Below are positions 3,001 to 17,102 of a stretch of DNA of 20,000 nt, piece after piece. Position 1 is the first letter of the stretch, and each line of letters opens with the position of its first letter. The notes beneath the pieces were generated by a model that saw nothing but the letters and a program-made list of their open reading frames with translations, ran no database searches and was not told where the DNA came from. The stretch comes from an uncultured virus (IMG/VR IMGVR_UViG_3300008954_000038). Lineage: Duplodnaviria; Heunggongvirae; Uroviricota; Caudoviricetes. The stretch lies in IMG/VR virus record IMGVR_UViG_3300008954_000038, one strand, 5' to 3'. Both the position numbers and the translations under genes were made by a program.

Positions 3001-6000
3001 GAAATAGCGCAGACTTTTATATCTGACTTAGGCGCTACTGAAGATATGACAACCTTTTTGAATCCCGGTTCAGATTGGAGGGACGAAGATATCTTTAATG
3101 GGGTCAAAAACCTTCTGTACAGAAGTAATAGTCAGGTCCAGTTGGTTAACTGGTATAAATCTGGCGAATCTATTATTGTTAAGCTTAATGTTGAGCTTAC
3201 AAAAGGAAAAGAGTATAGATGTCTTTTTAATAATGAAAAGTGGACTGACGATGAATCTTATATATCTTCAGTAAGTTTTGATGGAACCAAAAAGACCGCT
3301 TCTTTTTGTGATGTATTTACTTCCTCGTCAGGAGATTTGGATATAGAATTAAATGCCACAAAGCTTGGTATCAAAAACGAAGAGCAGTTAGATATATTTT
3401 CTGAAACAATTGGGGAAACACAAGGAAACAAAAACTTAATATTAGATCACCTCAAAAGCAGGGTATGCGTTGTCGAATCGGCTGGTTTTGTTGACCAAAC
3501 AATTAAGATAGATGGGGATAATTTAGGAGTTGCTGATTATATTGATTACCAAATACCAATACTAAACAACACAAATGATCGTGGGTTTGGTTTTCTTAAT
3601 CCAGATAGCTTTTACTATACAGAAGAGCATAACGATATATTTACGAGAGGACAAAGGTGGGATAATTTAACAAGAGAAGCAGCCGGTCTGGAGGGGGATA
3701 GCTTCAATGGGTTAATGTACGATGGGCCTTTGCCTGCTGACATAAAGTATATATATCCTAGAACTCAGGTAACAGAAGGTAAGAATCAGCTTGACTTTCT
3801 TATAAGTAATGATTTTTGGGATGGTTTTATAGACAGATTTGAGGTTGAAGACGAGTATGGTTCTCAGTCGAATAGAACTAAACCAAAAAATATTGAGTTT
3901 ACTTTACAACAGCTTGTTGATGAAGAGTGGGAGGATGTTAAGAATAGCAAAAATGAAATCGTCTCTTTGACCGCAAGCCAAGAATCTAGATCTGGAAAAA
4001 CTGCATATGCTAAAGTCTCTGTGCCCAGTGATCCGGGGGTAATAAGTGGCGCAACTTATAGGCTTGTTATCATTAATGAAGAAGTAGAATATTATAAAGA
4101 AGGAAAAAGGCATACCTTTTCTAATTCTAGCATGAGGGTTCCTTTTAGCTGGAAGAGCGTTGTATTTGCTTCAGAAATAACTAGCGTTAAAAACGTTTCT
4201 AGAGGAGATATTTATGAAAATAATATTAGTTTGGTTGAAAACCCAACACTTCAAAAGTCAATAGCTTTCCCTAAAGAAGGAGTATCTAAATTAGGCTCTT
4301 ACTCTTATAGAAAAGATCACCCCTATCTTGGGCTTAGGGTTCCTTATACTAGGCGTTACATGTACAGATTAGATCATAGCTTAAACGCTATCTATAGAGA
4401 TAAGATAAGTCAAGGTGGTATATCTAGAGTAGAGATAACTAACTCTGGTTCTGATTATAGGCTTGCTCCAGACATAACCATTGCTTCTCCTGAAGAGGGC
4501 ACGACAGCTACAGCTAAGGCTTACATAGAATCTGGAAAGTTAAAGTTTATTAAAGTCACTAATAGTGGGTCTGGTTACTCTGATTTATCAAAGCTAAATG
4601 TTAATAAATTTATAAGCAGCAACTGGGGAAGAGGAGCTGTTGTTAGGAAGGAGTGGATGATTCAGGCGGCTAAATTTACTCATAACTTTACCTTAAATGG
4701 AACAAAAGTAGTGACTCATGACGGGATAAAGAATATAGTATTTGGTTCTCTTGTGTCTGGAACAGGCATACCTTTGGGGACAAGAGTCACAAAGGTAAAT
4801 AGCTCAACTGAATTTGAAATTAGTGATAGCGCTACTGCAAGTGGAACCCAGACTCTAGCTATAGATCGAGCGGAAAGACCTATGCCCTATATATCTCTTG
4901 AAGATCAATTTGGTGTTGAGACGGCTGATGTTACGCTTAAAACTATTGATCCGGCTAAGCTGCCCAAGAGCGACCCTCGTTACGATAATCCTTGCCAAGA
5001 AAGCTTTGGTATAGATTTTGATGAGTCTGAAATTATAGCTGATTATACGGACTCTTACGAAGGTCAGGATTTAGCTGAAGATGCTATTAGTGCCGTAACT
5101 AATTATGTAGCTTTGATAGAGGGAGCCACAGAGGACCCAAATTGGCTTGAGAAAAGTGTTGATGATAAAGCTTCCCTTATTGGGGACTTAAATGCAGGGG
5201 AAAATTCTTCTGATGTGGAATCAAAAGAGATTTCTGCTTACGGACAAACAACTGAAGACGAATATGTTGATGACATAAAAGGGACTGAGCATCCTAGCGT
5301 GCAGGGCTTATATATAGCAAAAGAAGCAGACGAAATAGAACAAACGGGCACAACTGTAAATGATGATGGAACATGCCTGAGAGAAGTCTTTCCGTCTGTT
5401 AGTTCTGGGGCAGCTAAGGCTATAGTGAATAATCAATCTTTAGCAGAATACAGAGTTGTGGAAAATGCAGTAGCTAATACCGCTACCCCTTGGCTTTCTT
5501 CTTTTTCTAGAGAAGAGAACCCTTCTTTACCTAAGGGTTTTGGTATTAATCCGGGATCTCCTTTAACTTCAGAGGTTTTTAATAATTATGCTAGAGCTGT
5601 TAATAATATGTCTCTAGTTGGTGCTTATGTTCCGGTTTTCGCTAGAGTCAGAAAGTTTAGACAGTATGAGTATAGGTATATAGACGACATGGGAGGTATT
5701 ACTTTTAATGTAGAGAACCCGAAAGAAGCAGGAGAGGAAGAATCTGGGGGAGGGGTGTTAGGTTATGGTACTTGGGAAGCTGAGTCTAAAATTAATTACA
5801 TAGACTTTATTGATCCAAATGATAGACAATATAAAACCGCTTGGTTTTCTGCTGACTTTGGTAATACAATTAAATATTCAGATGATGTTACAAAAAATAT
5901 AACAGGTCAAGTTTACGATACAGGGATTGAATTATACAGAGATATTGATGAGACTGACGTAGCATATAATAGAAGATTAAAGAAGAGAAATCTTAAAATA

Positions 6001-6975
6001 GAAGACAGCTCTTATAAGCCTGACGATATAGGCTTACCAACCATCGTTAATATACCTAAAGAATTAGGGGTATTTTGTAATCCAAAAATGAAGCTCAAGA
6101 GGAATGAAAATGTTGGAAAAGACGTAGGGATTGAACTGCCTTCTTTAAATAATATAAGAGCTTCTGTTTTTGGTGGTGAGTTAGTGCATACTAGTGAAAC
6201 TTACGATATAACAGACGAAGACGGTAGAATAGTTTCTTCTATTATAAACATAGCGGGCTCTGATATAATAGATACTTCTTACGAAAACGAAATAATATTT
6301 GGCTGTCAGACTAGAGGCAAGCCTTTTTGGTCTACGTTTTTAAAGACTACGAAAGAGTGGACTGAGTTTGAGATTGTTCCTTCTCCTTCGTTTGTTGATT
6401 CTCTTTCTTCAGATGAGGGCATGGGTACTTTGAACCAAATAAAGGGCTCTGTATCTAGGGTTACGACTTTATGCGAAAATAAGGAATTTTCTAAAGTAGA
6501 TACTAGTTTAGGAGAGACCCATAGTCTTTGTGTTGATGGTGGGAACGGCATGGGGGTCAGTGCGGAATTTTCTTACGAAAATTTATTTAATTTGCGTGAC
6601 GGTGATGCTGTTATAGGTCCTGTGGCAGATAGTCATGAGATTGTTTTTGATCAAACTTTTGGAGGGCAAGGAACTCAGATATTTAAGATGGAGCCGGAAT
6701 TTACTCAAGCTCTAGCTGTTTATGGTTCTCATGGTGTTGCAAGCTTCTCGAGGCTAGGGGGAAGTGCTGGTGATACACTGCATGGTTACGTTGGTCCTTG
6801 CATTCATAAGTGTTCTCCTAGGGCAGAGGCTGTTTTTAACGCTAGTGATGAACAGTTGGTTTTTGATTTGATGGCGGGGTCTAAAAAAAGAGCTCTTAGC
6901 TCTACTAGTCGTATGCCAAAATTAGTTGTTTTTACTGACCCGCAGACGGGAGAAAAAAGTTATAGGTATGAATAA
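1..6975 (+). CDS. Giant acidic putative virion structural protein (tail/baseplate/fibre-associated), probably 5'-truncated
   Basis: The frame is open from base 1 (gtt agt agg ggc gct ata aag gtg), so GTG at 22 is probably not the true start. It contains beta-rich modules typical of large-phage virion proteins: TITESSGVATATT..HSIQNGSTITITGATPEVYN..F.VT.TGDKTFTF (~1162-1344), ISRVEITNSGSDYRLAPDITI..TTATAKAYI..IKVTNSGSGY (~4414-4581), GSLVSGTGIPLGTRVTKVNSSTEFEISDSATASG (~4680-4860). Confidence 0.65.
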   Translation, partial: VSRGAIKVGYLDKCDNELEWKIFSSERADFRTDDPWEPNQYDSSEGPINPNNEKRPLLKMATQIEDNHLPPTEADEPTKPTVPNRQDPLPEDACAEEQVYVKYSEVRKQDKRDWFIRLTDLDVPHFIRDNSYFDEKEHEMELKTKKFGRINVDYSGTRFKFSNIFGTNKMDFKEHQTGFQTIEDYDDPYKFGITLLSNRRGIQKKIFWEKDVSDKFFPVYLKLPWDMPKDIIAYMLSTGHERLSKCLHFNERNGEITLGGIQPDKCYSLASESLSSYDFVHDATQVDAPLSTSGSARHYHDKDYMRSLKSMIFRPKLIYNKKAYFSGEKITGGDLSEYKVTYPYFSTLSVSQFSAKGLEETSMEETRVQEKKQMQEDISDEARAEGRDIDIHTITESSGVATATTLDNHSIQNGSTITITGATPEVYNSSFEVTITGDKTFTFSIAEGTGDASGDLLAANIKDLDPIIFSWDKVTKDSHENDFLSGRVESIVDHHVSEKQELIQGRKIKDIKGFYEQEIWKGDNVGSVDEEGYVVQELNENYWKTSRFFKFVIPLKAGFTYSKQDSPEEKIIIRDKDENEKNIGLAEEGDIAEVTIQFTEEDVNKYVELPGLEYEVSASLTYNRSDLQTEGGTNVKVAQISLEPKDSMPFVADGYISSLNEDFASPDGDEYTTKSLDNLAKKYKNNEQDEEYKKISGSLMQLKDNQVYQSLKNNLGYSFVPLFGVTSGNNPMVGFSFNLKRNLNSYRAIRFRLKKLTDRRIVFDDLTKDDKIGPYLINNPDEANLQYRLNTSVNSIAYHDIAHPGGVATTPVQGWSDVVLSGSDLELPQCADGDGIVFKEDNGEIKAGKVYYVRLNNIDTANDKYKVDVLKIYCDSATSSAQGFDNSIKVNSDLTESGPAQKYKIVNYFNLDKKAGDEGHRGYTPVIDKLYPEGVGSADDQGLARGSTFNFPIIIGSKKFYLERALYKNPGDTTEFSTWADTVWERESSGFRVRANLEMSEIAQTFISDLGATEDMTTFLNPGSDWRDEDIFNGVKNLLYRSNSQVQLVNWYKSGESIIVKLNVELTKGKEYRCLFNNEKWTDDESYISSVSFDGTKKTASFCDVFTSSSGDLDIELNATKLGIKNEEQLDIFSETIGETQGNKNLILDHLKSRVCVVESAGFVDQTIKIDGDNLGVADYIDYQIPILNNTNDRGFGFLNPDSFYYTEEHNDIFTRGQRWDNLTREAAGLEGDSFNGLMYDGPLPADIKYIYPRTQVTEGKNQLDFLISNDFWDGFIDRFEVEDEYGSQSNRTKPKNIEFTLQQLVDEEWEDVKNSKNEIVSLTASQESRSGKTAYAKVSVPSDPGVISGATYRLVIINEEVEYYKEGKRHTFSNSSMRVPFSWKSVVFASEITSVKNVSRGDIYENNISLVENPTLQKSIAFPKEGVSKLGSYSYRKDHPYLGLRVPYTRRYMYRLDHSLNAIYRDKISQGGISRVEITNSGSDYRLAPDITIASPEEGTTATAKAYIESGKLKFIKVTNSGSGYSDLSKLNVNKFISSNWGRGAVVRKEWMIQAAKFTHNFTLNGTKVVTHDGIKNIVFGSLVSGTGIPLGTRVTKVNSSTEFEISDSATASGTQTLAIDRAERPMPYISLEDQFGVETADVTLKTIDPAKLPKSDPRYDNPCQESFGIDFDESEIIADYTDSYEGQDLAEDAISAVTNYVALIEGATEDPNWLEKSVDDKASLIGDLNAGENSSDVESKEISAYGQTTEDEYVDDIKGTEHPSVQGLYIAKEADEIEQTGTTVNDDGTCLREVFPSVSSGAAKAIVNNQSLAEYRVVENAVANTATPWLSSFSREENPSLPKGFGINPGSPLTSEVFNNYARAVNNMSLVGAYVPVFARVRKFRQYEYRYIDDMGGITFNVENPKEAGEEESGGGVLGYGTWEAESKINYIDFIDPNDRQYKTAWFSADFGNTIKYSDDVTKNITGQVYDTGIELYRDIDETDVAYNRRLKKRNLKIEDSSYKPDDIGLPTIVNIPKELGVFCNPKMKLKRNENVGKDVGIELPSLNNIRASVFGGELVHTSETYDITDEDGRIVSSIINIAGSDIIDTSYENEIIFGCQTRGKPFWSTFLKTTKEWTEFEIVPSPSFVDSLSSDEGMGTLNQIKGSVSRVTTLCENKEFSKVDTSLGETHSLCVDGGNGMGVSAEFSYENLFNLRDGDAVIGPVADSHEIVFDQTFGGQGTQIFKMEPEFTQALAVYGSHGVASFSRLGGSAGDTLHGYVGPCIHKCSPRAEAVFNASDEQLVFDLMAGSKKRALSSTSRMPKLVVFTDPQTGEKSYRYE

Positions 6976-7330: not shown

Positions 7331-8068
7331 TTATATTTTCTTCAGTCTCCCTATTAGTTCAAAAGTTTTACTTTTTGGTATGTCGTCTATAGATTCAATA
7401 TCTGTTGCTCCAGCAAAATCTTCTTGTATAAGTTTTGACTTGATATTATTAAACGAAATATTCTTTGACTCCATTATTTTTTCAAGTAATTGAGAAGGGT
7501 TTGATCCGGCTTTGCTTGGAGCGGCCTTTTTATATGAGGCGGCAGAGTTTTTAGCTGATCCTCCTCCCATCTCCTCTTGTCCGACTACATTGATCTTTAG
7601 AAAATTTCTAACGCATCTTACAAAGGCTCTGTTTTCTGCTGTGGCTGCTAAGAAGTTAGAAGCAAAGCTGTAGGTGTTATCTACGTGTGCATCTGCTAAA
7701 GCAGAAAAAATTACAGACTTATTATCTGTTTCGTAGTTTGGCGTCCAGCTTATGATACAGCTAGTGGCAAAATACTCTTGATTAGCCGCTACTACTTCGT
7801 AAGAAACAGAATTGAAACCTCTGATTTGAGCAAGCTCTTTAATTCCCCCAAGGAGAATTAACAAATCTCTATCTTCTAGAAGAGATACATCTGTTTCGTT
7901 TGTTTTTTGTTTATTTGGGACTAGGTACTCTTTCCTGACCATTTTTCTCCAGTTTACTGAACCGTCTTCATTGAAGACATAGTCGATAGGGGGGTTCTCT
8001 AGGAGGCCTCTTGAGTTTCTGGAGAGTTTCTCTGCATTGAGCTCAACTTCTTTGGCTTTGTCCGTCAT
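7331..8068 (-). CDS. Putative single-strand annealing protein (Rad52/Sak-like superfamily)
   Basis: GGIKELAQIRG, a beta-strand core, then FSALADA...FLAATAENRAFVRCVRNFLKI..VGQEEM, which resembles the A-E-x-R-A-x-x-R helix of phage SSAPs. A low-complexity linker and a small C-terminal helical domain follow. It has its own promoter. Confidence 0.5.
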   Translation of the reverse strand: MTDKAKEVELNAEKLSRNSRGLLENPPIDYVFNEDGSVNWRKMVRKEYLVPNKQKTNETDVSLLEDRDLLILLGGIKELAQIRGFNSVSYEVVAANQEYFATSCIISWTPNYETDNKSVIFSALADAHVDNTYSFASNFLAATAENRAFVRCVRNFLKINVVGQEEMGGGSAKNSAASYKKAAPSKAGSNPSQLLEKIMESKNISFNNIKSKLIQEDFAGATDIESIDDIPKSKTFELIGRLKKI

Positions 8069-8076
8069 ATATCTAC

Positions 8077-8105
8077 AGTATAACTTAAACTTGGGTTTTT
8101 GTCAA
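8077..8105 (-). promoter_or_regulatory. sigma70-type promoter with CAAGT spacer motif
   Basis: The minus strand reads TTGACA-AAAACC-CAAGT-TTAAGT-TATACT with a 17-bp spacer; ATG 8068 lies 8 nt after the -10. Confidence 0.85.
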
Positions 8106-9286
8106 ACTCTTTCTGTTATCCAGAAAAAATCCATTTCTTCCCAGAACTCTTTTTGGTCCAAGATTGGTATTGGGTCCGGAGTGAAATTGTTGATAGTTAT
8201 GTCGTTCAGGAATGCAGCTCTTCCCGGGTATATTTTATCCTCTTTTATTAAAAATTTTCTACTTCTGAATGTTAGTTTGTCTAGTTGTAAATTTTCGTAA
8301 TTTGGTAGAGACTTTTTATCTTTTTTCTCTATGATCATTATGGGTTTATTTAAATTTAGAATACTATATTTAAGTTTTTTTAAATCTTCTCCTTCTAAGT
8401 CTGAGTATATAGAATTAGGAATATTGTTTCTTTCTAATTCTCTAGAGAAGTCAGCGTCGTATTCTTCGTTTCTTATTAAATATATAACTTGAGAAATTTT
8501 TTCTTGATTCCTAGTAAGGTAATCAATGGGTATAGTTTTGTTCGTAACTATTAGTCCGGGGTTAACGTTTAACTGTTCTTCCATTACTTTTAAATCGTAA
8601 TGATAGTCCATTCTTATAACGTGTCTGTCTTTTGGTACTGGTTTACTGAAATTTGTTATAGCAGAAGGTATGATTTCTAAAAATTCATTATTCCATTTCG
8701 GCCCTATTTGAACTGTTTTATTTTTTATTTTAGCCTCAATCCCTAATAAGCTAAACACAGACTGCGCTATTTTTTCTGGCGCTATCGTATCAATAGTCTT
8801 AGGCTTTTCTTCTGTTGAGAAAGAGTGCTTGAGTCCTTTTTTGTCGCTTTCGAGTAAGATGACATCTTCTTTTTTTGACCAAAAAGGCCCACAGTTTTGG
8901 ACGGGGCTGTGAGAATATAGAGATACTATTTTCTTTTGGGATGCTGATGCTATATGTGTAGAGAAGGTGTCTGTACCTAGGTGAAGTAAGCCTCTCTTTA
9001 TTAAGTAGGCTGCTTGATTAATACTCGTTTTTCCGCATAGGTCATAGCATCCTTCGAATACCTGTTCTTTTTCTGTTCCAAGCTGGACCATGTGTATGTT
9101 TAGCTTTCTGAGGACAGGGATTAGCATGGACAGTGTGTCTTTCCAGTAGCTATAATTTTTAGAAGGTTTAGAAAAGGGGCTAAAGGTTATATATTTATCG
9201 AAAGGTAGGGGAGAAAACTTTTCATAGATATAAGGTTTATCTATTTTTGCTCCAGAAGCTAAAGAGTATTGTTCTACTAAGTGCAT
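8102..9286 (-). CDS. GT9 (heptosyltransferase-like) C-terminal half plus an unknown C-terminal domain
   Basis: H.VEQY...G...P, KNYSYW, VQLG, DLCGKTSINQAAYLIK...LHLGTDTFSTHIASA..KKIVSLY...P....PFW match the donor-binding C-terminal domain of WaaF/WaaC-type GT9. The GT9 N-terminal domain is absent. Confidence 0.75.
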   Translation of the reverse strand: MHLVEQYSLASGAKIDKPYIYEKFSPLPFDKYITFSPFSKPSKNYSYWKDTLSMLIPVLRKLNIHMVQLGTEKEQVFEGCYDLCGKTSINQAAYLIKRGLLHLGTDTFSTHIASASQKKIVSLYSHSPVQNCGPFWSKKEDVILLESDKKGLKHSFSTEEKPKTIDTIAPEKIAQSVFSLLGIEAKIKNKTVQIGPKWNNEFLEIIPSAITNFSKPVPKDRHVIRMDYHYDLKVMEEQLNVNPGLIVTNKTIPIDYLTRNQEKISQVIYLIRNEEYDADFSRELERNNIPNSIYSDLEGEDLKKLKYSILNLNKPIMIIEKKDKKSLPNYENLQLDKLTFRSRKFLIKEDKIYPGRAAFLNDITINNFTPDPIPILDQKEFWEEMDFFWITERV

Positions 9287-9291
9287 GGTTT

Positions 9292-11223
9292 TTAATCGGT
9301 TAAATTTAAGGCTATGACATCTTTGCCATTATGTTGATAGTTAAAGAGTCTTTGTGTTCCTAGGTGAAGAAGGTAGGCTATCTCAAAGAACCCTTTATGT
9401 TTTCCTCTTCCTTCTAGCCATAGTAAGTCGTCCATTTTTGGGTCATAAGGTATAGTTTTATGGATAAAAGGGTTACCGTCTAATACTTCAAAATATTCGG
9501 GAGCGGTTGCGAAATAAATATTATAATCTTTGTATGTTTTTGCTAGACTTTCGAGAACAGACGTAGACATAAAAACGTCCCCTATGCTGCCGGGCATTAC
9601 AGCTAAAAGCCTTTTACCTTCGTCGTCTTTATCTAGTAGTTCTTCTATTTTAAAAGGGATGTTTTCTTTGTTTTCTTCTTCTGCTTTGTTCCTGAAGAAG
9701 TTTTCTATGTTTTTTCTTGGTGTCTTGTTAGCTATCTGTTTCATCCAGTATTTATGTCCGTCGTTTGTTGGGTCAACGTTCATATTGAGTATATTCTTAT
9801 ACAAGTAGATAAGCCACTCGGAATCATCTTCAATACTGTTGGGGATCGTAGCCTTCGGGTTTCTAGCTTTCCATTCTAGGCTATTGAAATCGAAATCAGC
9901 GAAAGGAGCAGAGTCAATAAATTCTTCTATAATTTTACCTGTCACTTCTGTTGAGAAGTTTTTTATAGCCCATTCCCTTGCTTGCTTTCCAAGCTTGTCC
10001 CTTTCTTCTGGGAGCATCTTAAAAACCTTATCTAGGTTTTTAGCTATTGACTTAGGGCAGGTTGAGGCTTTTCTAAATTGTGTTCCTACTTCTCTGTACT
10101 CTGACCATTCTAAAGGTATGGACCCTGAGCCTTTTTCACAACTCTCTTCTCCGCAGCTATAGTTTGTAACTAGTGTTATTAGTTCTGCTAGTTTGGCTTC
10201 TTGTATTGGTATCTCTTGGCCTCCGCTTGTAAATGGGTGACAATACACATCCATTAAGTTATAAATTTCATTGAGCTCTTGCTCTTCTATTCCTAGGCTT
10301 ACGGAGCAGGTAAGTTGAGATTTATTAGAGTTGCAAATTTCGCATTTAGTCTCTTGTCCTTTGAAGGGCTTAACAAAATAATTTTTACATTCTTTGCATA
10401 TATGCGTTGTTATTATTTCCTCTTTGGGTACTTTGTATTCGTCACAAAGCTTATGAATATTCCAACCTTCGGCCCAGTGGGTATGAAACAATAAATAGGT
10501 TTTTTTAGGTGGAACCTTATGTTTTACTGCTGATATTTCTTTCCATTTAGCGTAGCCTTCTATAAGGTTGGGTACAGATTTTCTTAACTGATTTCTAAAC
10601 ACGAAACCAATAATAAAAGCGTCTTTTTCTATGTTGAATTTTTTTCTTAACTCTAGTCTTTTTTCTTGGGGCAGTTTTTTAAAGCTTGTTTTATTTATAA
10701 CGCCGTGAACGGTCTTGGTGTTTTTTATACCTAATCTTTCGAACTCTTTTTGAGCGAAGGAACTCCATACCCAAAAGTTTTTAATTTCCTTTGCTATCTC
10801 TAGGGCGTTTGGGTACAATGGCAAAGAATCTAAGGTTGTCCATATCGAGGAAGTTATTTTATCAAACCATTCTTTTTTTGTACAGGATTCTACTCCCCAT
10901 ATGTCTTGGGTTCCTATATAAACATCTGGTTTTACTTCTTTTACTATTTCGTTTATAAAGTAGCCCCCGTAGCTTGCTTCTTTGCCTTGTTGTGGGTCTT
11001 GGTTGAGCTTCATTAGTAGGTTCTTGTCATTAGGAAGTGTTCCTAAGCTCTTCCAAGGAGTTCTGTTGAGTTCTGCGGAGTCTTTGCTTGCTCCACAGCA
11101 ATAATGATATATCTCGTACTTGCCTGTATCATACAAGTACGAGAGGAGCTCTTTAGAGTTTCTACCGAAGCCTGTTTTGGCTAGGGCTGAATCGCTATGA
11201 AATAATACTTTTTTCTTCTTCAA
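9292..11223 (-). CDS. Multidomain glycosyltransferase: GT4 with a CxxC..CxxC insert, a DUF4214-like domain and a GT9 N-terminal domain
   Basis: TGFGRN at the N-terminus; IGFVFRNQLRK; LNEIYNLMDVYCHPFTSGGQEIPIQEAK (GT4 E-x7-E region, degenerate); CKEC..CEIC insert; WLIYLYKNILN...DGHKYW...PRKNIENFF (DUF4214-like); GSIGDVFMSTSVLESL...EVLDGNPFIH (GT9 N-domain). TTG start 1 nt after the upstream stop. Confidence 0.8.
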   Translation of the reverse strand: MKKKKVLFHSDSALAKTGFGRNSKELLSYLYDTGKYEIYHYCCGASKDSAELNRTPWKSLGTLPNDKNLLMKLNQDPQQGKEASYGGYFINEIVKEVKPDVYIGTQDIWGVESCTKKEWFDKITSSIWTTLDSLPLYPNALEIAKEIKNFWVWSSFAQKEFERLGIKNTKTVHGVINKTSFKKLPQEKRLELRKKFNIEKDAFIIGFVFRNQLRKSVPNLIEGYAKWKEISAVKHKVPPKKTYLLFHTHWAEGWNIHKLCDEYKVPKEEIITTHICKECKNYFVKPFKGQETKCEICNSNKSQLTCSVSLGIEEQELNEIYNLMDVYCHPFTSGGQEIPIQEAKLAELITLVTNYSCGEESCEKGSGSIPLEWSEYREVGTQFRKASTCPKSIAKNLDKVFKMLPEERDKLGKQAREWAIKNFSTEVTGKIIEEFIDSAPFADFDFNSLEWKARNPKATIPNSIEDDSEWLIYLYKNILNMNVDPTNDGHKYWMKQIANKTPRKNIENFFRNKAEEENKENIPFKIEELLDKDDEGKRLLAVMPGSIGDVFMSTSVLESLAKTYKDYNIYFATAPEYFEVLDGNPFIHKTIPYDPKMDDLLWLEGRGKHKGFFEIAYLLHLGTQRLFNYQHNGKDVIALNLTD

Positions 11224-11224
11224 T

Positions 11225-11773
11225 TTACCAAACTACGTCTTCGTCTTCTGTGTCTTGAGGGGGAGCGCTAGAGGTGTTTTGGCTCTTACTTGGCCCGCTT
11301 TTTTTATTGTCCCTAAAAGAAGCCTGAGCTTCTTCAAGAGAAGTTTGGTATATAGAGTGCATAGAGAAAACAAAGTATTGCTTAAGAGCTTCCGCTTCTC
11401 CATACCTAAATCCCATAGAGTAGGTAGCTTTCTTTTCTGAGTCTTCTTTTGAATCTGCCGTGACTCTAAAGTTGAAACCATGATTGTCTCCTTGGGAATA
11501 TGGAGAAAAGTTCATCTTGGTTGCCCTTGTTTGAGTTCCGTGATAAGCAGACCAGTCACTTTTGGTATCAATGGCGTTAATAATCGCTCCAAGTTCCATT
11601 ACATTTAACTTGGTGATGCATTTACTATCGGCATCGAATCTACCTGTTTTCGATCTGTCGTCCCAGCTTTTTTGTTTGATCAAGCTAGCATATACAGACT
11701 TGTCTTTTGGATTAACAGAGAAAGAGCAAGCTGTCCCTGTTACCTTTGGATTTGCTTTATAAAACTGAATCAT
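11225..11773 (-). CDS. Putative ssDNA-binding protein (Whirly/PC4-like) with acidic C-terminal tail
   Basis: Start revised to ATG 11773 (MIQFYK), because the longer ORF crosses a terminator and a promoter. The sequence shows two apparent beta-meander+helix repeats (FD...K...KL...ELG.I; Y.MGF..GEAEAL) and an SSB-like tail, DTEDEDVVW. Confidence 0.5.
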   Translation of the reverse strand: MIQFYKANPKVTGTACSFSVNPKDKSVYASLIKQKSWDDRSKTGRFDADSKCITKLNVMELGAIINAIDTKSDWSAYHGTQTRATKMNFSPYSQGDNHGFNFRVTADSKEDSEKKATYSMGFRYGEAEALKQYFVFSMHSIYQTSLEEAQASFRDNKKSGPSKSQNTSSAPPQDTEDEDVVW

Positions 11774-11782
11774 TCTTAAATA

Positions 11783-11811
11783 ATTATAAGAGATACTTGG
11801 AGGTTTGTCAA
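11783..11811 (-). promoter_or_regulatory. Consensus sigma70 promoter with CAAGT spacer motif
   Basis: The minus strand reads TTGACA-AACCTC-CAAGT-ATCTCT-TATAAT with a 17-bp spacer; ATG 11773 lies 9 nt after the -10. Confidence 0.9.
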
Positions 11812-11812
11812 C

Positions 11813-11842
11813 AAAAAAAGCCACCTTAAAAAAAGATGGCTT
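11813..11842 (-). terminator. Intrinsic terminator after hsp20
   Basis: The minus strand forms a GCCATCTT-loop-AAGGTGGC hairpin (one G-U pair) followed by T7. Confidence 0.8.
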
Positions 11843-11870
11843 GGAATGTGGAAAACTGGTTACTATTTGT

Positions 11871-12272
11871 CTATTGAACGTCAATCGTCCTGTTCTTATC
11901 CTTTTCCCTTTTGCTAATAGTGATACTCAGCAAGCCGTTTTCCATCTTAGCTTCCAAAGTTGTTATGTCGGCCTTATTAGGGACAGAGTAGCTTCTGTCG
12001 TATTCTACTTTTTGGCCTGCGACTTCGCCTTTAACCTCTAATTTAATTCTGTTATCAGCTACTTTAACTTTTACGTTATCTTTACTTAGCCCCGCAAAGG
12101 GGACATGAAAGTTGTATCCGTCCTCCGTTTCGTCGAAATGGGTATTGTTGTCTGAGGACCAGCCTTTCCAAGCTTTGGTCCACTCGTCTTCTCCGCCAAG
12201 GCTTTCGTTAACGAATCCAAAAAGATCTCTTACGTTGCCTAGGCCCATGTTTGCTAGTGTATATGTACTCAT
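11871..12272 (-). CDS. hsp20: Small heat shock protein (Hsp20/alpha-crystallin)
   Basis: ETEDGYNFHVPFAGLSKDNVKV...YDRSYSVP..AD...LEAKMENGLLSITISK, the alpha-crystallin signature. Confidence 0.93.
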   Translation of the reverse strand: MSTYTLANMGLGNVRDLFGFVNESLGGEDEWTKAWKGWSSDNNTHFDETEDGYNFHVPFAGLSKDNVKVKVADNRIKLEVKGEVAGQKVEYDRSYSVPNKADITTLEAKMENGLLSITISKREKDKNRTIDVQ

Positions 12273-12285
12273 AATGTATAAATCT

Positions 12286-12307
12286 ATTATAGCAGTAAGT
12301 ATGCCAA
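12286..12307 (-). promoter_or_regulatory. Candidate sigma54 (-24/-12) promoter overlapping an extended -10, upstream of hsp20
   Basis: The minus strand reads TTGGCATACTTACTGCTATAAT: GG-N10-GC with TGGCA at -24. The same bases also give TG-C-TATAAT. Confidence 0.55.
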
Positions 12308-12334
12308 CTTTAAAAACGCTTATTTACTAAGGTT

Positions 12335-12592
12335 TTAGCTATTTAGAGTGTGCGTTTCTAGGCCTGTCCCACTTTTTGTCTCACTTACTAAGAGGGATAG
12401 TGTGTCTTTATGTCCCTGTAGTGTCGCTAGATTGTCTTCTGCTGCTGCTAGTTTTGAGACATATTTATCCAATTCTGTTAACAGGTCGGAATGTTCTCCT
12501 ATCCCTACACTTTTGTTCATATAGACCTTAAGTGTAGCTAGGCATTCTTCAACCTCCGCTTCATATTTTTTTACTAATGCGTCGTAAAACAT
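12335..12592 (-). CDS. Hypothetical small coiled-coil phage protein
   Basis: Helical hairpin KYEAEVEECLATL..Y....VGIGEHSDL..ELDK; packed 2 nt behind the kinase gene. Confidence 0.7.
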   Translation of the reverse strand: MFYDALVKKYEAEVEECLATLKVYMNKSVGIGEHSDLLTELDKYVSKLAAAEDNLATLQGHKDTLSLLVSETKSGTGLETHTLNS

Positions 12593-12594
12593 AA

Positions 12595-13191
12595 TTATTT
12601 TTTTTCTTTATACCATTTCGCAAATTCTTTTGCGTAAGGCCTTAAAGCTTCTTTGATCTGTTCTTCTTTAGCGTTTCCTACATGGGGCCATTCTATAGAG
12701 TAGTCTGCTTTTTCCATCAATTTAGGGTCATTTCTTTTTTCGTCTTCGTTTGGTGGGTCAAAATAAACTCTCCTAACTTGAGTACTGTCCATTGTTTCTA
12801 TTTCACAATATTTTCTCAAGTGTACTAATGTTCCTTTATTTTTTCCTTTCAACCAGAACACTTCGTCGTTCTCATATTCCGCGTAGCGTATATCTGTAAC
12901 TACGGGAGTACTTTTACAGGCATCTACTTTTTTTTGAGCTTTGTCTGTCCAATATTGCCCTTTTGTTTCATACCTTTTTATACCTCCATAAAACACAAGG
13001 AGGTTTCTAACCTTGTTTTTTTCTTCAAGGGTGCAATTTAAAATATCTATTGCGTACTTTTGTAAAATGAAACCTCTGGTTTCGTCCTTTAAGGGATCAG
13101 CTAGAGCTATCCTTGTTCCTTGTATTTCTTTTAAGAGGAGTTTACAAAAAAGATCTTTGCCTGCTCCAGCTATTCCGCTTATTCCTATCAT
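12595..13191 (-). CDS. Deoxynucleoside monophosphate kinase (phage dNMP kinase-like)
   Basis: N-terminal P-loop IGISGIAGAGKD, ALADPLK and VVTDIRY..E, motifs typical of T4 gp1/T5 dNK-like kinases. Confidence 0.8.
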   Translation of the reverse strand: MIGISGIAGAGKDLFCKLLLKEIQGTRIALADPLKDETRGFILQKYAIDILNCTLEEKNKVRNLLVFYGGIKRYETKGQYWTDKAQKKVDACKSTPVVTDIRYAEYENDEVFWLKGKNKGTLVHLRKYCEIETMDSTQVRRVYFDPPNEDEKRNDPKLMEKADYSIEWPHVGNAKEEQIKEALRPYAKEFAKWYKEKK

Positions 13192-13197
13192 AGTGTT

Positions 13198-13854
13198 TTA
13201 ATGGGGTTTAATTGTAAAATATTTTTGCTTGCTTTCCCAGCCTTCACAAGTTTCTGGGTCAAACTGAGCTTTTGTTAATTGTATATCAATTTTTTCAAAG
13301 AAACTATCAATTGCTTTTGATGCACCGGGAAAAGACTTAAGCTGTTGAGGCGACTTATATTCGTCAAATAAAATAAGTCCACCGGGTACGACTTTTTCGT
13401 AAAGGCCTTCAAGGCAAACTTTGTACGAGTTATAGAGGTCGCAGTCTAGGTGTAGTATAGCTATTTCTTTGTCGGTATATGAATCGGGGATAGTATCTTC
13501 AAAAAAACCTTTGATAACGTGTACGTTGGTATCAATTTTGTTCTTCATTTCCAGAGCAGGCTCGATAGGACGTCTCCATTCTCCTTTTCTAGGATTTCTT
13601 GGGGATTTATCTTCGGGTGAAGGTTCTGGAAAGCCTTCAAAGGAATCGTATAGCCATATATCCCTCTTAGTAATAAGATTTTGGTTCATTAGTTCCACAA
13701 ATATATTTGCGGAGACTCCTTCTCCAAACCCTGTTTCAACGAAAGAGCCTTCCACTTCATTTACAAGTTTAGATACATGTAAAAAATACTGACGGATCGG
13801 GGCGTCTGTTAGCAGGGATCTTTTTATTAAAACTTCTTTATACTCTTCTTTCAT
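13198..13854 (-). CDS. TylF/MycF/NovP-family SAM-dependent O-methyltransferase
   Basis: VETGFGEGVS, WLYDSFEGFP, KGFFEDTIP, ILHLDCDLYNS, VPGGLILFDEY, PGASKAIDSFF. Confidence 0.9.
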   Translation of the reverse strand: MKEEYKEVLIKRSLLTDAPIRQYFLHVSKLVNEVEGSFVETGFGEGVSANIFVELMNQNLITKRDIWLYDSFEGFPEPSPEDKSPRNPRKGEWRRPIEPALEMKNKIDTNVHVIKGFFEDTIPDSYTDKEIAILHLDCDLYNSYKVCLEGLYEKVVPGGLILFDEYKSPQQLKSFPGASKAIDSFFEKIDIQLTKAQFDPETCEGWESKQKYFTIKPH

Positions 13855-14411
13855 AGCTTCGAATGTAGGTTGCTTAAATTTCTACCTACAAAATGTAAAG
13901 AAACTAGAAAAAGACCTAGAGCAAACTTAACGGGCTTCAAAAAAAGATTTGATTTACTATGTTTTTTTACTTGTTTCATAGTTTTTTCCGCTATCTCTTT
14001 TGCGTGCTCTTGTGCTTTTTTGCGTTCTTCCGCTGGTACTTCTTCTACGTGGTTTAGGTCGACGCTGACTAGTTCTCCTTTTCTAAATAAGGCATCAAAG
14101 GCTACCCAGTAGTCTGTTTGGTCATCTCCTTCAAAGACTCTATAAAAGTGTATCGATCTTGTCTCTTCCATAAGCTTAAGGCCTTTGGGGCTTTCTTTTA
14201 TGTATCCGCCCATGGGGTGAGCTTCGTCCTTAATAAAACTGGAATCACATTCATGAATGAAAAGGCTTCCTGCATTAGAAACTGACCAAGTATCCATAGT
14301 CTTATTCAGGTCTGTTGTTTGAAACTCTAACTCGGAGAAGTCTAAGTCTTTTATTTTATTAGGTAGTCCTTCCTTAGGAAGAGGTGCCTCAAATAGTAAT
14401 ACATCAAACAT
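13851..14411 (-). CDS. Hypothetical phage protein
   Basis: 186-aa ORF with an ATGA overlap to the next gene; MFD....PLP...FQT.DL pattern and a hydrophobic/amphipathic C-terminus. Confidence 0.7.
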   Translation of the reverse strand: MFDVLLFEAPLPKEGLPNKIKDLDFSELEFQTTDLNKTMDTWSVSNAGSLFIHECDSSFIKDEAHPMGGYIKESPKGLKLMEETRSIHFYRVFEGDDQTDYWVAFDALFRKGELVSVDLNHVEEVPAEERKKAQEHAKEIAEKTMKQVKKHSKSNLFLKPVKFALGLFLVSLHFVGRNLSNLHSKL

Positions 14412-14412
14412 T

Positions 14413-14616
14413 TTAAAAAGATCTTATGTCAAACATGCTTACTGTTTGGGGGTCGCTATCTTTGTGTTTCCGAACAGAAAAATTCTCGTGGTCTATGACT
14501 TCGACAACTTTACCTATCCAGTTGTTAGCTTTAGCCTCAATTACTCGAACGGTTTTATCTACCATCCTTTCGTTGATTTCCTTCATTTTCTTTTGTTCTT
14601 CTGGTGTTCTAATCAT
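14413..14616 (-). CDS. Small hypothetical protein (possible SH3/Sm-like beta barrel)
   Basis: 67 aa, coupled to both neighbours; alternating beta-strand pattern KTVRVI..WIGKVVEV..FSVR..QTVSMFDIR. Confidence 0.6.
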   Translation of the reverse strand: MIRTPEEQKKMKEINERMVDKTVRVIEAKANNWIGKVVEVIDHENFSVRKHKDSDPQTVSMFDIRSF

Positions 14617-14918
14617 AGAATTAATTCTTTACCTGTTTTTGGAAAACTAATCTTTAGGGCTACGTATTTTTCAGTGTCTAAAAATTCTTTTTTTAATTCT
14701 TCTTTTTCTTCTTGCTTTAGAGAGGAGAGTATTGAATAGCCTATTTTTTCTGCAGCCATTTTTTGCGCTACTCCCTTAGAGCAACAGCCTGCGTAAGATG
14801 CCCTACATGTATCTATCAGCTTCTTTAGCTGGCCTATATCTAATAGTATCAAAGGCTTAGACAAAAGTAAAGAACAAAATTCATCACAAACACGATTTAC
14901 TAAAAATTTCTTTGGCAT
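14613..14918 (-). CDS. Hypothetical protein
   Basis: 101-aa ORF overlapping both neighbours in a tightly packed operon; contains four Cys. Confidence 0.55.
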   Translation of the reverse strand: MPKKFLVNRVCDEFCSLLLSKPLILLDIGQLKKLIDTCRASYAGCCSKGVAQKMAAEKIGYSILSSLKQEEKEELKKEFLDTEKYVALKISFPKTGKELIL

Positions 14919-15271
14919 CTTTTAAAAATAAAATAAAAAAACATCGTCAACATATAGCAAGCAAATATTAGAAACACATTTCCTGTAGCAATAATACAAC
15001 AAAGAGTAGATGCCCAAAAGCCGAAACAATAAGGGCAAGCTAGCAACTTGTTTATAAAACTTGGCTCTTTAATAGAAGCAAAATCTAAAAAACTTAATTC
15101 TGGATTATCAAAAAGTTCTTTTTCGTATTCTTCTATATAAGTAAATTTTGTTAATCTAAATAGCTTTAGGTAATCAACTAAAAAATTAGTTTCAAACCAT
15201 ACAACCATTATACCACAGGCTGATGACGCTGCCGCTAAAAAATTAAGCACCTGTACTACCGAAGCCTCCAT
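14900..15271 (-). CDS. Small membrane protein (DUF1360-like)
   Basis: Hydrophobic segments flank a KLLACPYCFGFW motif. Confidence 0.6.
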   Translation of the reverse strand: MEASVVQVLNFLAAASSACGIMVVWFETNFLVDYLKLFRLTKFTYIEEYEKELFDNPELSFLDFASIKEPSFINKLLACPYCFGFWASTLCCIIATGNVFLIFACYMLTMFFYFIFKRCQRNF

Positions 15272-15668
15272 CGGATCTTACTGAGTCTTCTAGTTCGTCT
15301 AACTCAACCCATCCTACCGAGAAGCACTGTTCTATTATAATTTGAGCTACCCTGTCTCCTTTCTCATAGGAAAAATCTTCTTTAGACAAGTTTTGCAAAA
15401 CTACACCCACTTCCCCCCTGTATCCAGAGTCTACAACTCCTGCTAGCACGTCGATGCCTTTTTTCACAGCGAGTCCTGATCTGGGGGCCACTCTGCCGTA
15501 GTAGCCGGGTGGAATTGCTACGGCTACGCTTGTTCCTACAACGCTTCTTTCTCCTGCTCGGATTATACCTTGCTGGTCGGCATACAAATCGTAGCCTGCG
15601 TCTGTATCTGTTGCTCTAGTCGGTATGGTTGCCGACTCCTTTAATTTTTTGATATATACGGAGATCAT
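15243..15668 (-). CDS. dut: Trimeric dUTPase
   Basis: All five motifs are present: AGYDL, PRSGLA, GVVDSGYRGE, GDRVAQ, RSDGGFGSTG. Confidence 0.97.
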   Translation of the reverse strand: MISVYIKKLKESATIPTRATDTDAGYDLYADQQGIIRAGERSVVGTSVAVAIPPGYYGRVAPRSGLAVKKGIDVLAGVVDSGYRGEVGVVLQNLSKEDFSYEKGDRVAQIIIEQCFSVGWVELDELEDSVRSDGGFGSTGA

Positions 15669-16068
15669 TATTGTGTTGTGTTAAATTTATTCCAAATTCT
15701 GAAGCTAGGTCTATAGCTGTTTTATCAAAATCGTACGCTTTGATATAGAATACTCGCTTTATTCCGTACGAAGCTATATTCTTAATGCAGTCTCCACATG
15801 GCATTAAAGTTACAAACATTCTATCTGCTTCTTTAGGTTTTATATTCTTTAAAGCGTTTGTTTCGGCATGGATAACCCTTTTCCTTCTTTCGTCTCTATC
15901 TGACCAGTCTATGTTTATTCCCGGAGGTGCTCCGTTATAACCTAAAGAGGCTACGCTATTATCCGATCTGAGCAAACAACACCCCACTTTAACAAAAGGG
16001 TCTTCGCTTCTGAGTGCTGCTGTTTTTGCTAGCTCTATACCGTAATCTGCCCAGCTGAGTCGCTCCAT
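15616..16068 (-). CDS. dCMP deaminase
   Basis: RSEDP..KVGC, GYNG, HAETNAL and VTLMPCGDC zinc-deaminase motifs. Confidence 0.93.
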   Translation of the reverse strand: MERLSWADYGIELAKTAALRSEDPFVKVGCCLLRSDNSVASLGYNGAPPGINIDWSDRDERRKRVIHAETNALKNIKPKEADRMFVTLMPCGDCIKNIASYGIKRVFYIKAYDFDKTAIDLASEFGINLTQHNNDLRIYQKIKGVGNHTD

Positions 16069-16074
16069 TTTTTA

Positions 16075-16103
16075 ATTCTAGAAAAAACTTGACAAAAAGT
16101 CAA
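16075..16103 (-). promoter_or_regulatory. Leftward sigma70 promoter (likely leaderless dCMP deaminase operon)
   Basis: TTGACT-TTTTGT-CAAGT-TTTTTC-TAGAAT with a 17-bp spacer; ATG 16068 is 6 nt after the -10, at the expected +1. Confidence 0.8.
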
Positions 16104-16117
16104 GTTATTTTTATAAT
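16089..16117 (+). promoter_or_regulatory. Rightward perfect-consensus sigma70 promoter
   Basis: TTGACA-AAAAGT-CAAGT-TATTTT-TATAAT with a 17-bp spacer; overlaps the perfect inverted repeat AACTTGAC-N5-GTCAAGTT (16086-16106). Confidence 0.9.
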
Positions 16118-16123
16118 ACTTAA

Positions 16124-16478
16124 TAGCGTGAATTCTAAGCAGTTAAAAAGCGAAAGCGAGTCTGACAACTCTTAAGAGACCAACAACCCCGTAGGGGCTT
16201 CTCGAACATTAGTACGCTACAAGCGGGTGCAGGCGGCGTTTGAGGGAAGTGGCCATTTAAAAAAGTTCTACTGCTTTTAACAGGATTCACCAACATAGAT
16301 TGCTGAAGTCATCAGCTAGGCTCCTGAGATATGGGGTCGAAAAGGCGAAATGCCCTGCGAGATAGAACTAAAGTGGAAGCGAAAGCGTTCTTCGGTAATT
16401 GCGTTAAAAGCTTAAGTTGGGTGAACTGTATCCAGTTCAGGAAAAATTTTCGATTCCGCGCTAAGCGGAATCTTTATT
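16124..16478 (+). ncRNA. Candidate ~350-nt structured non-coding RNA or long regulatory leader, family unknown
   Basis: This is the only long intergenic region, bounded by a consensus promoter and a terminator-like hairpin, and appears richer in GC than its flanks. Helices: 16128-36/16282-90, 16137-43/16270-76, 16201-07/16238-44, 16264-70/16363-69, 16302-16, 16422-39, plus two GC-GAAA-GC tetraloop motifs. Confidence 0.65.
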
Positions 16479-16480
16479 AT
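16452..16480 (+). terminator. Terminator-like hairpin
   Basis: GATTCCGC-GCTAA-GCGGAATC forms a perfect 8-bp stem, followed by TTTATTAT (imperfect U tract). Confidence 0.6.
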
Positions 16481-16491
16481 AATAAAAAAAT

Positions 16492-17067
16492 ATGAATAAT
16501 TTTTACTCAGAGATTAAAAAAATTCAAACAGACAACTGTTCTAGTTCTTTAGATTCTGTTATAGAAAGGTATACTCCCGTTTTCTTATCCATGTACTCCA
16601 AGTTTTTCTTTGCCATGAGAGAAAGCGGTGCAGACCCTTCGGATATCTTAGAAGACAAAGACTTGATTATTTATGAAGCGGCTAAAAGTTTTAATTTAGA
16701 TAAAGGGTCTAGTTTTTGTACTTGGCTCAGTAATAATACTAAATATAAATGCCTGCACTTGATAAATAAAACAAAGAAGAGCTCTTTGTTACAAGAGAGA
16801 GTAAGAAATAACAACGAAACTTCTTTAAATAATTTAAATAAAAATGTTTTTAAACTGAAGGAGCTTAATTCTCATATATTTTCTATTCTAGATTCCTTGA
16901 GAGATAAAAGAATAATGTCTGTTTATAAGTTGAGGTATTTTTCTGGGAATAAAATGACTTGGTCTAAAATAGGCAAGAGCCTAGGGTTCAGCTCTCAAAC
17001 TGCTATAAATTTACACGCAAGGGGGGCTGATATTTTAAAGAAGAAAATAAATAAAATAAATCCTTGA
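16492..17067 (+). CDS. Phage sigma70-family RNA polymerase sigma factor
   Basis: Region 2-like IYEAAKSFNLDKGSSFCTWL (compare A..FD..KG..FSTY) and region 4 HTH VYKLRY....MTWSKIGKSLGFSSQTAINLHARG. Confidence 0.8.
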   Translation: MNNFYSEIKKIQTDNCSSSLDSVIERYTPVFLSMYSKFFFAMRESGADPSDILEDKDLIIYEAAKSFNLDKGSSFCTWLSNNTKYKCLHLINKTKKSSLLQERVRNNNETSLNNLNKNVFKLKELNSHIFSILDSLRDKRIMSVYKLRYFSGNKMTWSKIGKSLGFSSQTAINLHARGADILKKKINKINP

Positions 17068-17092
17068 CACAAAAGCAAGTTTATAGGATACT
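17064..17092 (+). promoter_or_regulatory. sigma70-type promoter with CAAGT spacer motif
   Basis: TTGACA-CAAAAG-CAAGT-TTATAG-GATACT; the -35 contains the TGA stop of the sigma gene; ATG 17103 lies 10 nt downstream. Confidence 0.7.
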
Positions 17093-17102
17093 TAATAAAG
17101 TT

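Follow-up and report, generated by a model that had tools for sequence, protein, structure and literature searches.

Conserved, covarying folds at the 5′ end of a transcript, combined with a variable output that is either a terminator or a buried start codon, are known from riboswitches and T-box leaders, and riboswitch classes are known to combine one conserved sensor-like core with outputs that can be exchanged. The HK022 put RNAs and the EAR element, which are processive antitermination RNAs, also fold and act in cis at the beginning of the transcript of a phage or an operon, with a terminator further downstream. Here we describe a predicted RNA of about 320 nt in a 20,000-nt stretch of DNA (the window, to which all coordinates without a locus name refer) from the uncultured virus IMGVR_UViG_3300008954_000038 of IMG/VR, an ocean phage. 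The RNA lies on the plus strand immediately upstream of a gene for a sigma-70-family factor, and it almost certainly represents a real, new and large structured RNA family. A new phage structured RNA had been proposed at this place in an initial annotation made from the letters of the window, and this claim was borne out, since the RNA is conserved and covarying in relatives and has no Rfam match. It resembles riboswitch and T-box leaders in the features named above and differs from them in that it matches no Rfam family, its core exceeds most aptamers in size, no helix that would switch between core and output was found and the gene it precedes encodes a phage sigma factor.

We compared the locus with catalogued RNAs. 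Rfam 15, which covers GOLLD and ROOL (RF01998 and RF03087), HEARO, OLE, raiA, RNase P, tmRNA, 6S, group I introns, T-boxes and riboswitches, gave no match at gathering score anywhere in the window, and a permissive search of 16000-16600 returned four chance-level matches, the best with an E-value of 0.9 and 22.7 bits against a gathering score of 60. At gathering score, 20 related loci yielded one tRNA only, and the permissive search of a relative of type B (L086:1380-1910; types are described below) yielded only noise. ARAGORN detected no tRNA or tmRNA gene in the window. The check by cmscan that had been proposed therefore matched no known family, and the reported lack of tRNA, tmRNA, RNase P and group I features agreed with the Rfam and ARAGORN results. 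No match was found among 50,697 phage records either for the window RNA, searched by blastn, or for an RNA of type C/other, and the open-access literature searched contained no description of this RNA.

The "ornate" orphan RNAs GOLLD, ROOL, OLE, raiA and HEARO of bacteria and phages (see PMC12286853 and PMC5737381) are also large, highly conserved and multi-helix, with GNRA loops and pseudoknots, and are also carried by phages. Unlike them, the RNA upstream of sigma has no cmscan match, is smaller (320-500 nt) and is locked to one neighbour and one strand. A catalogue of 10,006 candidate RNAs from IMG/VR does not use the word "sigma" in its main text, and its supplement lists DNAVirus_1961, a candidate structured RNA (csRNA) of 103 nt that occurs in viral contigs from water and soil, no more than 25 bp ahead of sigma70-ECF genes (PMC10690425). 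Compared by its catalogue description, DNAVirus_1961 is possibly a fragment of the superfamily described here and possibly unrelated to it.

Conservation and helices of the RNA

Relatives were identified with an alignment of 18 sigma sequences, which led to nine IMG/VR contigs (29-134 kb) whose sigma factors are 60-64% identical to that of the window. All nine share one layout, consisting of a deaminase gene, a palindromic promoter, a conserved non-coding block of ~400 nt, a hairpin and sigma, and the RNA is directly upstream of sigma in each of them. Two DNA patterns from separate parts of the block each returned those same nine IMG/VR contigs. A scan of metagenome contigs with one pattern gave 65 loci. 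Of these, 40 proved to be true relatives, having a G+C content of 34-43% and matching the RNA by blastn, and the remaining 25 were dropped as chance matches in G+C-rich coding DNA, mutually unrelated. The RNA of this kind, which we call type A, is carried by 49 related loci, 31 of them distinct and full-length.

The 50 sequences were reduced to 37 unique ones, of which the 31 full-length sequences, trimmed to end at the sigma start, were aligned with MAFFT (alignment A3). Left out were L003 and L022, which are near-identical to rows that were kept, L023, in which the RNA breaks off at ~176 nt, and L038, L058 and L072, all of which are cut by contig ends. The conserved core of type A that emerged from these 31 relatives spans ~317 nt (16124-16440). 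In L023 (27-445), the first ~176 nt are RNA, 92.6% identical to L001, and unrelated sequence follows; this locus is either a recombinant or an assembly chimera.

RNAalifold predicted 60 pairs on A3, 21 of them with compensatory changes, and manual extension brought the model to 67 pairs, which make up 13 helices, two pseudoknots among them. The results showed that 98.1% of the alignment cells in these 67 pairs are paired, compared with 36.6-49.1% when the 3′ partners were slid by 1-3 columns, and that 22 of the 67 pairs carry changes on both sides. The observed pairing score was matched by none of 500 shuffles. The window sequence taken singly has a minimum free energy of -97.4 kcal/mol (z -1.19; 15 of 100 shuffles of the plus strand fold as well), and the minus strand gives a z of -1.83. 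Folding of the window sequence alone is not beyond chance, and the case rests on comparison. The dense complementarity pointed out in the initial annotation thus does not exceed chance in the single sequence but is upheld by covariation across the 31 relatives, and both the conservation and the covariation that it had suggested looking for in related phages were found. Against this stands the way in which the type A set was gathered: because the patterns lie inside the RNA, the invariance of the pattern words is partly built in.

Domain 1 is closed by helix P1 (16127-16143/16271-16291; like all helices below, on the plus strand), which forms a duplex in all 31 sequences with differing letters. 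MAFFT misaligns P1, so it was tested sequence by sequence; the median z was -4.18, and in 27 of 31 sequences at most 5 of 200 shuffles reached the observed energy. The pairings GTGAATTCT/AGGATTCAC and AAGCAGT/ACTGCTT that had been singled out earlier are real and make up this helix. The P2 hairpin GC-GAAA-GC (16150-16157) has a GNRA tetraloop, and relatives keep the stem and have GAAA, GUAA, GGAA or GCAA in the loop. A second hairpin with the same letters, P9 (16379-16386), lies in domain 2. Both GC-GAAA-GC loops seen earlier are therefore real hairpins, the first always with a GNRA loop in relatives and the second also with non-GNRA loops.

The part of domain 1 that is common to the superfamily (16165-16252, matched over its full length by the covariance model R1 described below) contains P3 (16169-16171/16176-16178), P5 (GCUUCUC/GGGGAAU, 16197-16203/16244-16250), the variable hairpin P5a, P6 (16214-16218/16235-16239) and a candidate pseudoknot, CCCG/CGGG (16188-16191/16224-16227). 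P5 is the helix supported on A3, and the pairing CTCGAAC/GTTTGAG suggested for this region was in the wrong register. The candidate hairpin CCCC-GTA-GGGG is invariant in relatives, and it competes with the pseudoknot CCCG/CGGG. A second pseudoknot, PK2, pairs AGUUCUA, which follows an A-rich run (16264-16270), with UAGAACU (16363-16369). PK2 is 100% paired in the 31 sequences, with one-sided changes only; L058 has AGUCCU/AGGACU, and between types the pairs AGUUCU/AGAACU, AGUCC/GGACU and AGUCA/UGACU covary, as judged by eye.

Domain 2 (16298-16400) is enclosed by the long-range helix P8 (16298-16308/16390-16400), with compensatory changes at 6 of 11 pairs, and holds P7 (16319-16324/16333-16338; compensatory changes at 6 of 6 pairs), P7b (16343-16345/16354-16356), the 3′ strand of PK2 and P9. 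The hairpin GCTGA-N5-TCAGC that had been proposed here is not conserved, and its 5′ half belongs to P8. Downstream of domain 2 lies the invariant stretch AGUUGGGUG (16416-16434), which can form a UGGGU (16418-16422)/AUCCA (16430-16434) hairpin (97.4% paired; all changes fall on its 3′ strand) or, alternatively, a candidate pairing of GUUGG (16416-16420) with CCAAC (16180-16184), which overlaps the hairpin and is invariant, CCAAC being in the search pattern. These two are the only overlapping pairings found in type A. The hairpin TGAACTG-TATC-CAGTTCA of the initial annotation holds in the clade of the window and not beyond it, the family-wide form being UGGGU/AUCCA.

A wider superfamily of sigma-linked RNAs

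Sigma homologues that are 30-39% identical to that of the window led to 111 IMG/VR loci, 80 of which were kept. At many of these distant loci a stretch of 350-850 nt free of open reading frames (ORFs) precedes either sigma itself or a P-loop kinase-like ORF of ~200 aa that has sigma after it. A single blastn cluster unites 34 of these stretches, and the distant RNAs share words and helix order with type A, as judged by eye. A sequence-only nhmmer profile of type A did not reach the distant loci (best E 0.03), and only a structure-aware model revealed the homology. We aligned domain 1 of 15 distant sequences, excluding type A (alignment A6), in which 22 pairs are 92.5% paired, compared with 33.7-40.9% when slid, and 11 are compensatory.

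The covariance model R1, built from A6, matched the window over the full length of the model at 16165-16252 (27.9 bits, E 1.2e-4), all 31 type A loci searched (E ≤0.052) and 40 of the 80 distant loci, in every one of these 40 upstream of sigma on the sigma strand. In a joint alignment of 53 R1 matches (A7), one row of which is a likely false match, 96.5% of cells are paired, a share that sliding reduces to 31.5-47.1%, and compensatory changes occur at 16 of 22 pairs; to be set against these figures, A7 was fitted to the model and the E-values of the model are rough. The model R2, made from domain 2 of the distant relatives, matched the window weakly and directly after the R1 match (16255-16390, 18 bits, E 0.17). 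On type A it matched 25 of 31 loci in the expected place (E 0.004-0.83); off-target matches begin at E 0.046, and only nine of the 25 score better than that. These results indicate that type A is one branch of a wider superfamily, which is a new finding.

Several features of the other types were observed. RNAs of types B-D contain two direct copies of a 12-30-nt element, one in the middle of the RNA and one at its 3′ end, preceded by a word like GGGAAAAG (L086:1620-1850, L139:2200-2450, L114:1680-1880 and L105:1600-1830). The letters of the repeat differ between lineages but change together, and pairing with the sigma start codon is predicted in type C for the 3′ copy or for the nucleotides immediately behind it. 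The repeats are suggestive of coupling between a sensor and an expression platform, and they may be a switching element. Type B and C RNAs start with AGUUCUUUGUUAGC (e.g. L086:1445-1460); their 5′ word GUUCUUUG resembles the boxA elements of rRNA and phage antitermination leaders, a possible reading that the literature did not confirm and that was dropped. Eight loci (L129, L130, L131, L133, L145, L148, L151 and L154; ~1000-1480) form a separate cluster in which sigma is preceded by another stretch of ~450 nt free of ORFs. This stretch has the look of a structured RNA but no R1 match, and it may be another RNA family at the same position.

Linkage to sigma and possible functions

We investigated how closely the RNA is linked to sigma by searching with a 19-base RNA motif alone. 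The motif found 50 IMG/VR contigs, 48 of which have a sigma homologue downstream on the same strand, at a distance of 305-421 nt where the RNA abuts sigma, ~980-1,054 nt where one ORF lies between them, and 1,433 nt once. The two exceptions are L212, which holds only 84 nt downstream of the motif, and L190, in which no sigma match was found within 2,024 nt. The kinase-like ORF of type B (L086:1903-2497) is 39% identical to the product of a window gene at 12595-13191 (minus strand), which has a weak Pfam match to P-mevalo_kinase and lies 3 kb from the RNA on the opposite strand. Since the gene that intervenes in type B is 3 kb away in the window, gene order changed while the RNA stayed by sigma. 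These results indicate a cis link between the RNA and sigma that holds even between very distant lineages.

The 3′ end of the RNA was compared between loci. In the window, a terminator-like hairpin of 8 bp with a U-rich tail, TTTATTATAA (16452-16472, tail to 16480, plus strand), lies 19 nt before the sigma ATG at 16492, which confirms the hairpin described in the initial annotation. Of the 31 type A sequences, 29 have this hairpin and 23 satisfy the rule for a terminator-like hairpin; its stem is compensatory at 4 of 8 pairs. Among the 50 loci found with the motif, a convincing terminator before the ORF is present in one (L202), so the RNA is physically an mRNA leader in the other 49. Ten distinct loci have the RNA abutting sigma. 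In seven of them the pairing probability of the start region (-10 to +3) is 0.72-0.92, compared with 0.42-0.54 in shuffles, and in five of these seven at most 3 of 100 shuffles reach the observed pairing. In both loci with a terminator-like hairpin the start region is open (0.24 in L202 and 0.27 in the window). These comparisons of sequence and predicted folding indicate that the core is constant and the output interchangeable between lineages.

The reading that best accommodates these results is a cis-acting leader that gates sigma expression, for which we judge the chances to be about even. A covarying structured domain, a constant 5′ position on the same strand and an expression platform, either a terminator or a buried start codon, were all found, as in riboswitch-like leaders. 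Transcription would begin at a strong host-type early promoter (16089-16117), and the ~320-nt RNA, with several pseudoknots, would form the 5′ leader of the sigma transcript. The core would act as a sensor-like domain that sets the amount of sigma in cis in response to a signal such as a small molecule, an early protein of the phage or a factor of the host. In type A, polymerase stopping at the hairpin would give the RNA only, and read-through would give sigma mRNA with an open start region; in related phages the same core would be joined to a hairpin that buries the sigma start codon. The initial annotation had offered a standalone RNA that may partner sigma or RNA polymerase, a leader controlling sigma expression and a primer or R-loop RNA. 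The leader fits best among these three because of the cis tie to sigma across distant lineages and the expression-platform-like variation at the 3′ end.

Several observations weigh against the leader. The U tract is weak or displaced in 6 of the 29 hairpins, and the hairpin is absent from 2 of 31 relatives. Three of the ten loci of the direct type do not bury the start codon, L198 and L223 being like shuffles and L202 being open. Inspection of A3 by eye revealed no conserved alternative pairing or antiterminator joining the type A core to the hairpin; pairing of GCGGG with the 5′ strand of the hairpin was considered as a switch and rejected, because it fails, by eye, in the clade with the CACUGCGC stem. 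Core and hairpin are separated by an unconserved spacer whose length ranges from 0 to ~90 nt, which is unusual for a terminator/antiterminator switch, and the conserved core, at ~250-320 nt, is larger than most ligand-binding domains. A TATAAT at 16478-16483, 8 nt ahead of the ATG, could in principle yield a leaderless sigma mRNA; in favour of the leader, the scan rule found no separate promoter-like site between the hairpin and the sigma ATG. Three metatranscriptome runs contained next to none of the words of the RNA, and nothing from them aligned to 16000-17100 at 80% likeness, a result that has no bearing on expression.

A stable trans-acting RNA that works with sigma, RNA polymerase or another host target, as a ribonucleoprotein partner, a decoy or a ribozyme, appears rather unlikely, although a number of features would suit it. 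Co-transcription would then serve only for joint early appearance, and the hairpin would define and protect the 3′ end. The conserved, largely unpaired blocks, the three GNRA-type loops and the at least two long-range pairings look more like those of a ribozyme or a ribonucleoprotein scaffold than those of a simple leader, a stable hairpin ends the type A RNA before sigma in 29 of 31 sequences, and the spacer to this hairpin is free to vary. The tight linkage to sigma also suits a functional partnership, but genes for such RNAs rarely hold one strand and one neighbour over such divergence. Moreover, 49 of the 50 motif-found relatives have no convincing terminator before the next ORF, and the 3′ end pairs with the sigma start in 7 of 10 loci of the direct type, both of which argue for the leader.

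Processive antitermination, in which the nascent fold would bind polymerase and allow read-through of the hairpin and of later terminators, is improbable. The position at the start of a transcription unit and the necessity of acting in cis fit this mechanism, as does a terminator-like hairpin at variable distance in type A, since no alternative pairing would be needed. However, the RNA is several times larger than the known elements, of which put has a small fold of two stems, its sequence is unrelated to put and EAR, no Rfam family of that kind matched, and a terminator before sigma is absent from most relatives (1 of 50 has one). A promoter-like site (17064-17092) lies right after sigma, so the unit may also be short.

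That the RNA is a working partner of sigma or of the host polymerase, making up a ribonucleoprotein sigma factor or aiding the retargeting of polymerase from host to phage promoters, is distinctly improbable in our judgement. A shared transcript would then allow RNA and protein to assemble while they are being made. If it were such a partner, the strict linkage of RNA and sigma and the ribozyme-like conservation of unpaired blocks would follow, and the RNA would be part of a new kind of transcription ribonucleoprotein.

That the region holds a known RNA (RNase P, tmRNA, group I intron, 6S, T-box, GOLLD or ROOL) too diverged for the Rfam models, or a small protein gene, we consider very improbable. 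What speaks for a known class are loose likenesses of single motifs, namely a UGGGUG word and a run rich in A with a long-range helix behind it; the permissive cmscan searches of the window and the type B relative and the ARAGORN search speak against it, there are no exons to splice, and the order of the helices is unlike that of RNase P. A 54-aa ORF (16331-16495) overlaps the sigma ATG by ATGA, as a small gene might, but the protein-coding reading was rejected, since neither its ATG nor its frame is kept and no ORF is conserved in relatives. A primer or R-loop RNA at a replication origin at the strand-switch point is hardly credible, for although the genes of the window diverge where the cumulative GC skew reaches its minimum (about 16000-16200) and a strong promoter fires into the region, many relatives (L086-L090, L093-L096, L137, L139 and others) have an upstream gene on the same strand and so no strand switch, the conserved pairing and strand-specific motifs are tied to sigma, and the skew minimum is expected from gene orientation alone.

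Phage sigma factors set the switch by which early gene expression gives way to middle or late expression. If the leader reading is true, a large and deeply conserved RNA between the early promoter and sigma would gate that switch in many uncultured aquatic phage lineages, and if it senses a metabolite or factor, it would be a new sensor class through which a phage reads the state of the host before commitment. The family now comprises about 100 loci and has two covariance models, a map of its helices and outputs that are defined, which is enough for testing, and tests of the RNA are feasible with ordinary laboratory polymerase and reporter systems, without the host.

The sigma gene and its surroundings

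The gene downstream of the RNA (16492-17067, plus strand) encodes a 191-aa sigma-70-family factor, ECF-like, with regions 2 and 4. The protein by itself scored below the cut-offs of Pfam Sigma70_r2 (18.5 bits against 24) and TIGR02937 (32.4 bits against 42.9). In the PDB, a profile of 17 sigma homologues matched region 2 of SigA (E 3.9e-5) and the whole of SigW (E 6.9e-4). The AlphaFold model has a pLDDT of 85.3, and among the Foldseek matches to the PDB that were listed, 48 of 48 are sigma-70-family factors or entries containing one. The PDB profile matches and Foldseek thus bear out the sigma identity given to this gene in the initial annotation.

Metagenome protein sets contain 76 homologues of the window sigma. 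A locus search with the window sigma protein alone gave no relative, and the alignment of 18 homologues was needed. The window sigma (by tblastn) and the distant sigma P0075 had no match among the 50,697 phage records. When the sigma alignment was searched against 185,579 species genomes, it found one locus, L173, on a 44-kb contig of a metagenome-assembled genome labelled uncultured Pseudomonadales. On L173 no RNA was found by motif regular expressions or by R1, and this locus would be either a weak hint at the host or a binned phage contig. The single occurrence of the sigma family among these species genomes indicates that the RNA-sigma system is essentially viral.

The RNA lies in a gap (16069-16491) between divergent genes, with a dCMP deaminase gene (15616-16068, minus strand; Pfam dCMP_cyt_deam_1, E 2.3e-18) on the left and the 191-aa gene on the right. 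The predicted promoter of the RNA-sigma unit, TTGACA-17-TATAAT (16089-16117, plus strand), matches the consensus at 12 of 12 positions, as the initial annotation had stated. A divergent promoter-like site of the deaminase gene, TTGACT-17-TAGAAT (16075-16103, minus strand), matches at 10 of 12. The palindrome AACTTGACAAAAAGTCAAGTT (16086-16106) provides overlapping -35 boxes for both divergent promoters (16075-16117), and the promoter stretch CTTGACAnAAAGTCAAG ... TATAAT/TATACT is retained in the relatives displayed. Judging from the position of the promoter, the RNA would start at about 16124. The minus-strand -10 box TAGAAT ends 6 nt ahead of the deaminase ATG (16068), which suggests that the deaminase mRNA is nearly leaderless. 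Shine-Dalgarno-like words are absent before the ATGs of the genes in this area.

Downstream of the promoter, ~370 nt up to the hairpin and its U tract contain no conserved ORF. The earlier claim that no ORF of at least 60 aa lies in the gap was correct for 16069-16491; the longest ORFs are 16135-16296 (minus strand, 53 aa) and 16331-16495 (plus strand, 54 aa). Among the 31 relatives the longest ORF measures 22-62 aa and does not keep to one strand or one place, and neither window ORF is conserved. The G+C content is 0.40-0.47 in the gap, compared with 0.27-0.34 in the sigma gene.

The extended promoter word TTGACAnAAAnnnAAGTT occurs three times in the window (8088-8105, minus strand; 16089-16106, plus strand; and 17064-17081, plus strand), compared with 0.55 expected, and three copies were reached by 4 of 200 shuffles; it may mark early promoters of the phage. 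The third copy begins within the last codons of the sigma gene and lies in the further promoter-like site directly 3′ of sigma mentioned above.

Besides the auxiliary-looking genes named below, few genes of the window have any PHROG match, so the phage group is, as far as its genes tell, poorly charted. An open frame of more than 2,324 aa (1-6975, plus strand) runs off the start of the window; searched in three pieces, it has no Pfam match, and its PHROG matches are weak (head closure Hc2, E 9.7e-9). The region 7331-15668 (minus strand) is an auxiliary-looking run of genes that includes two glycosyltransferases, a TylF-like methyltransferase, Hsp20 and dUTPase.

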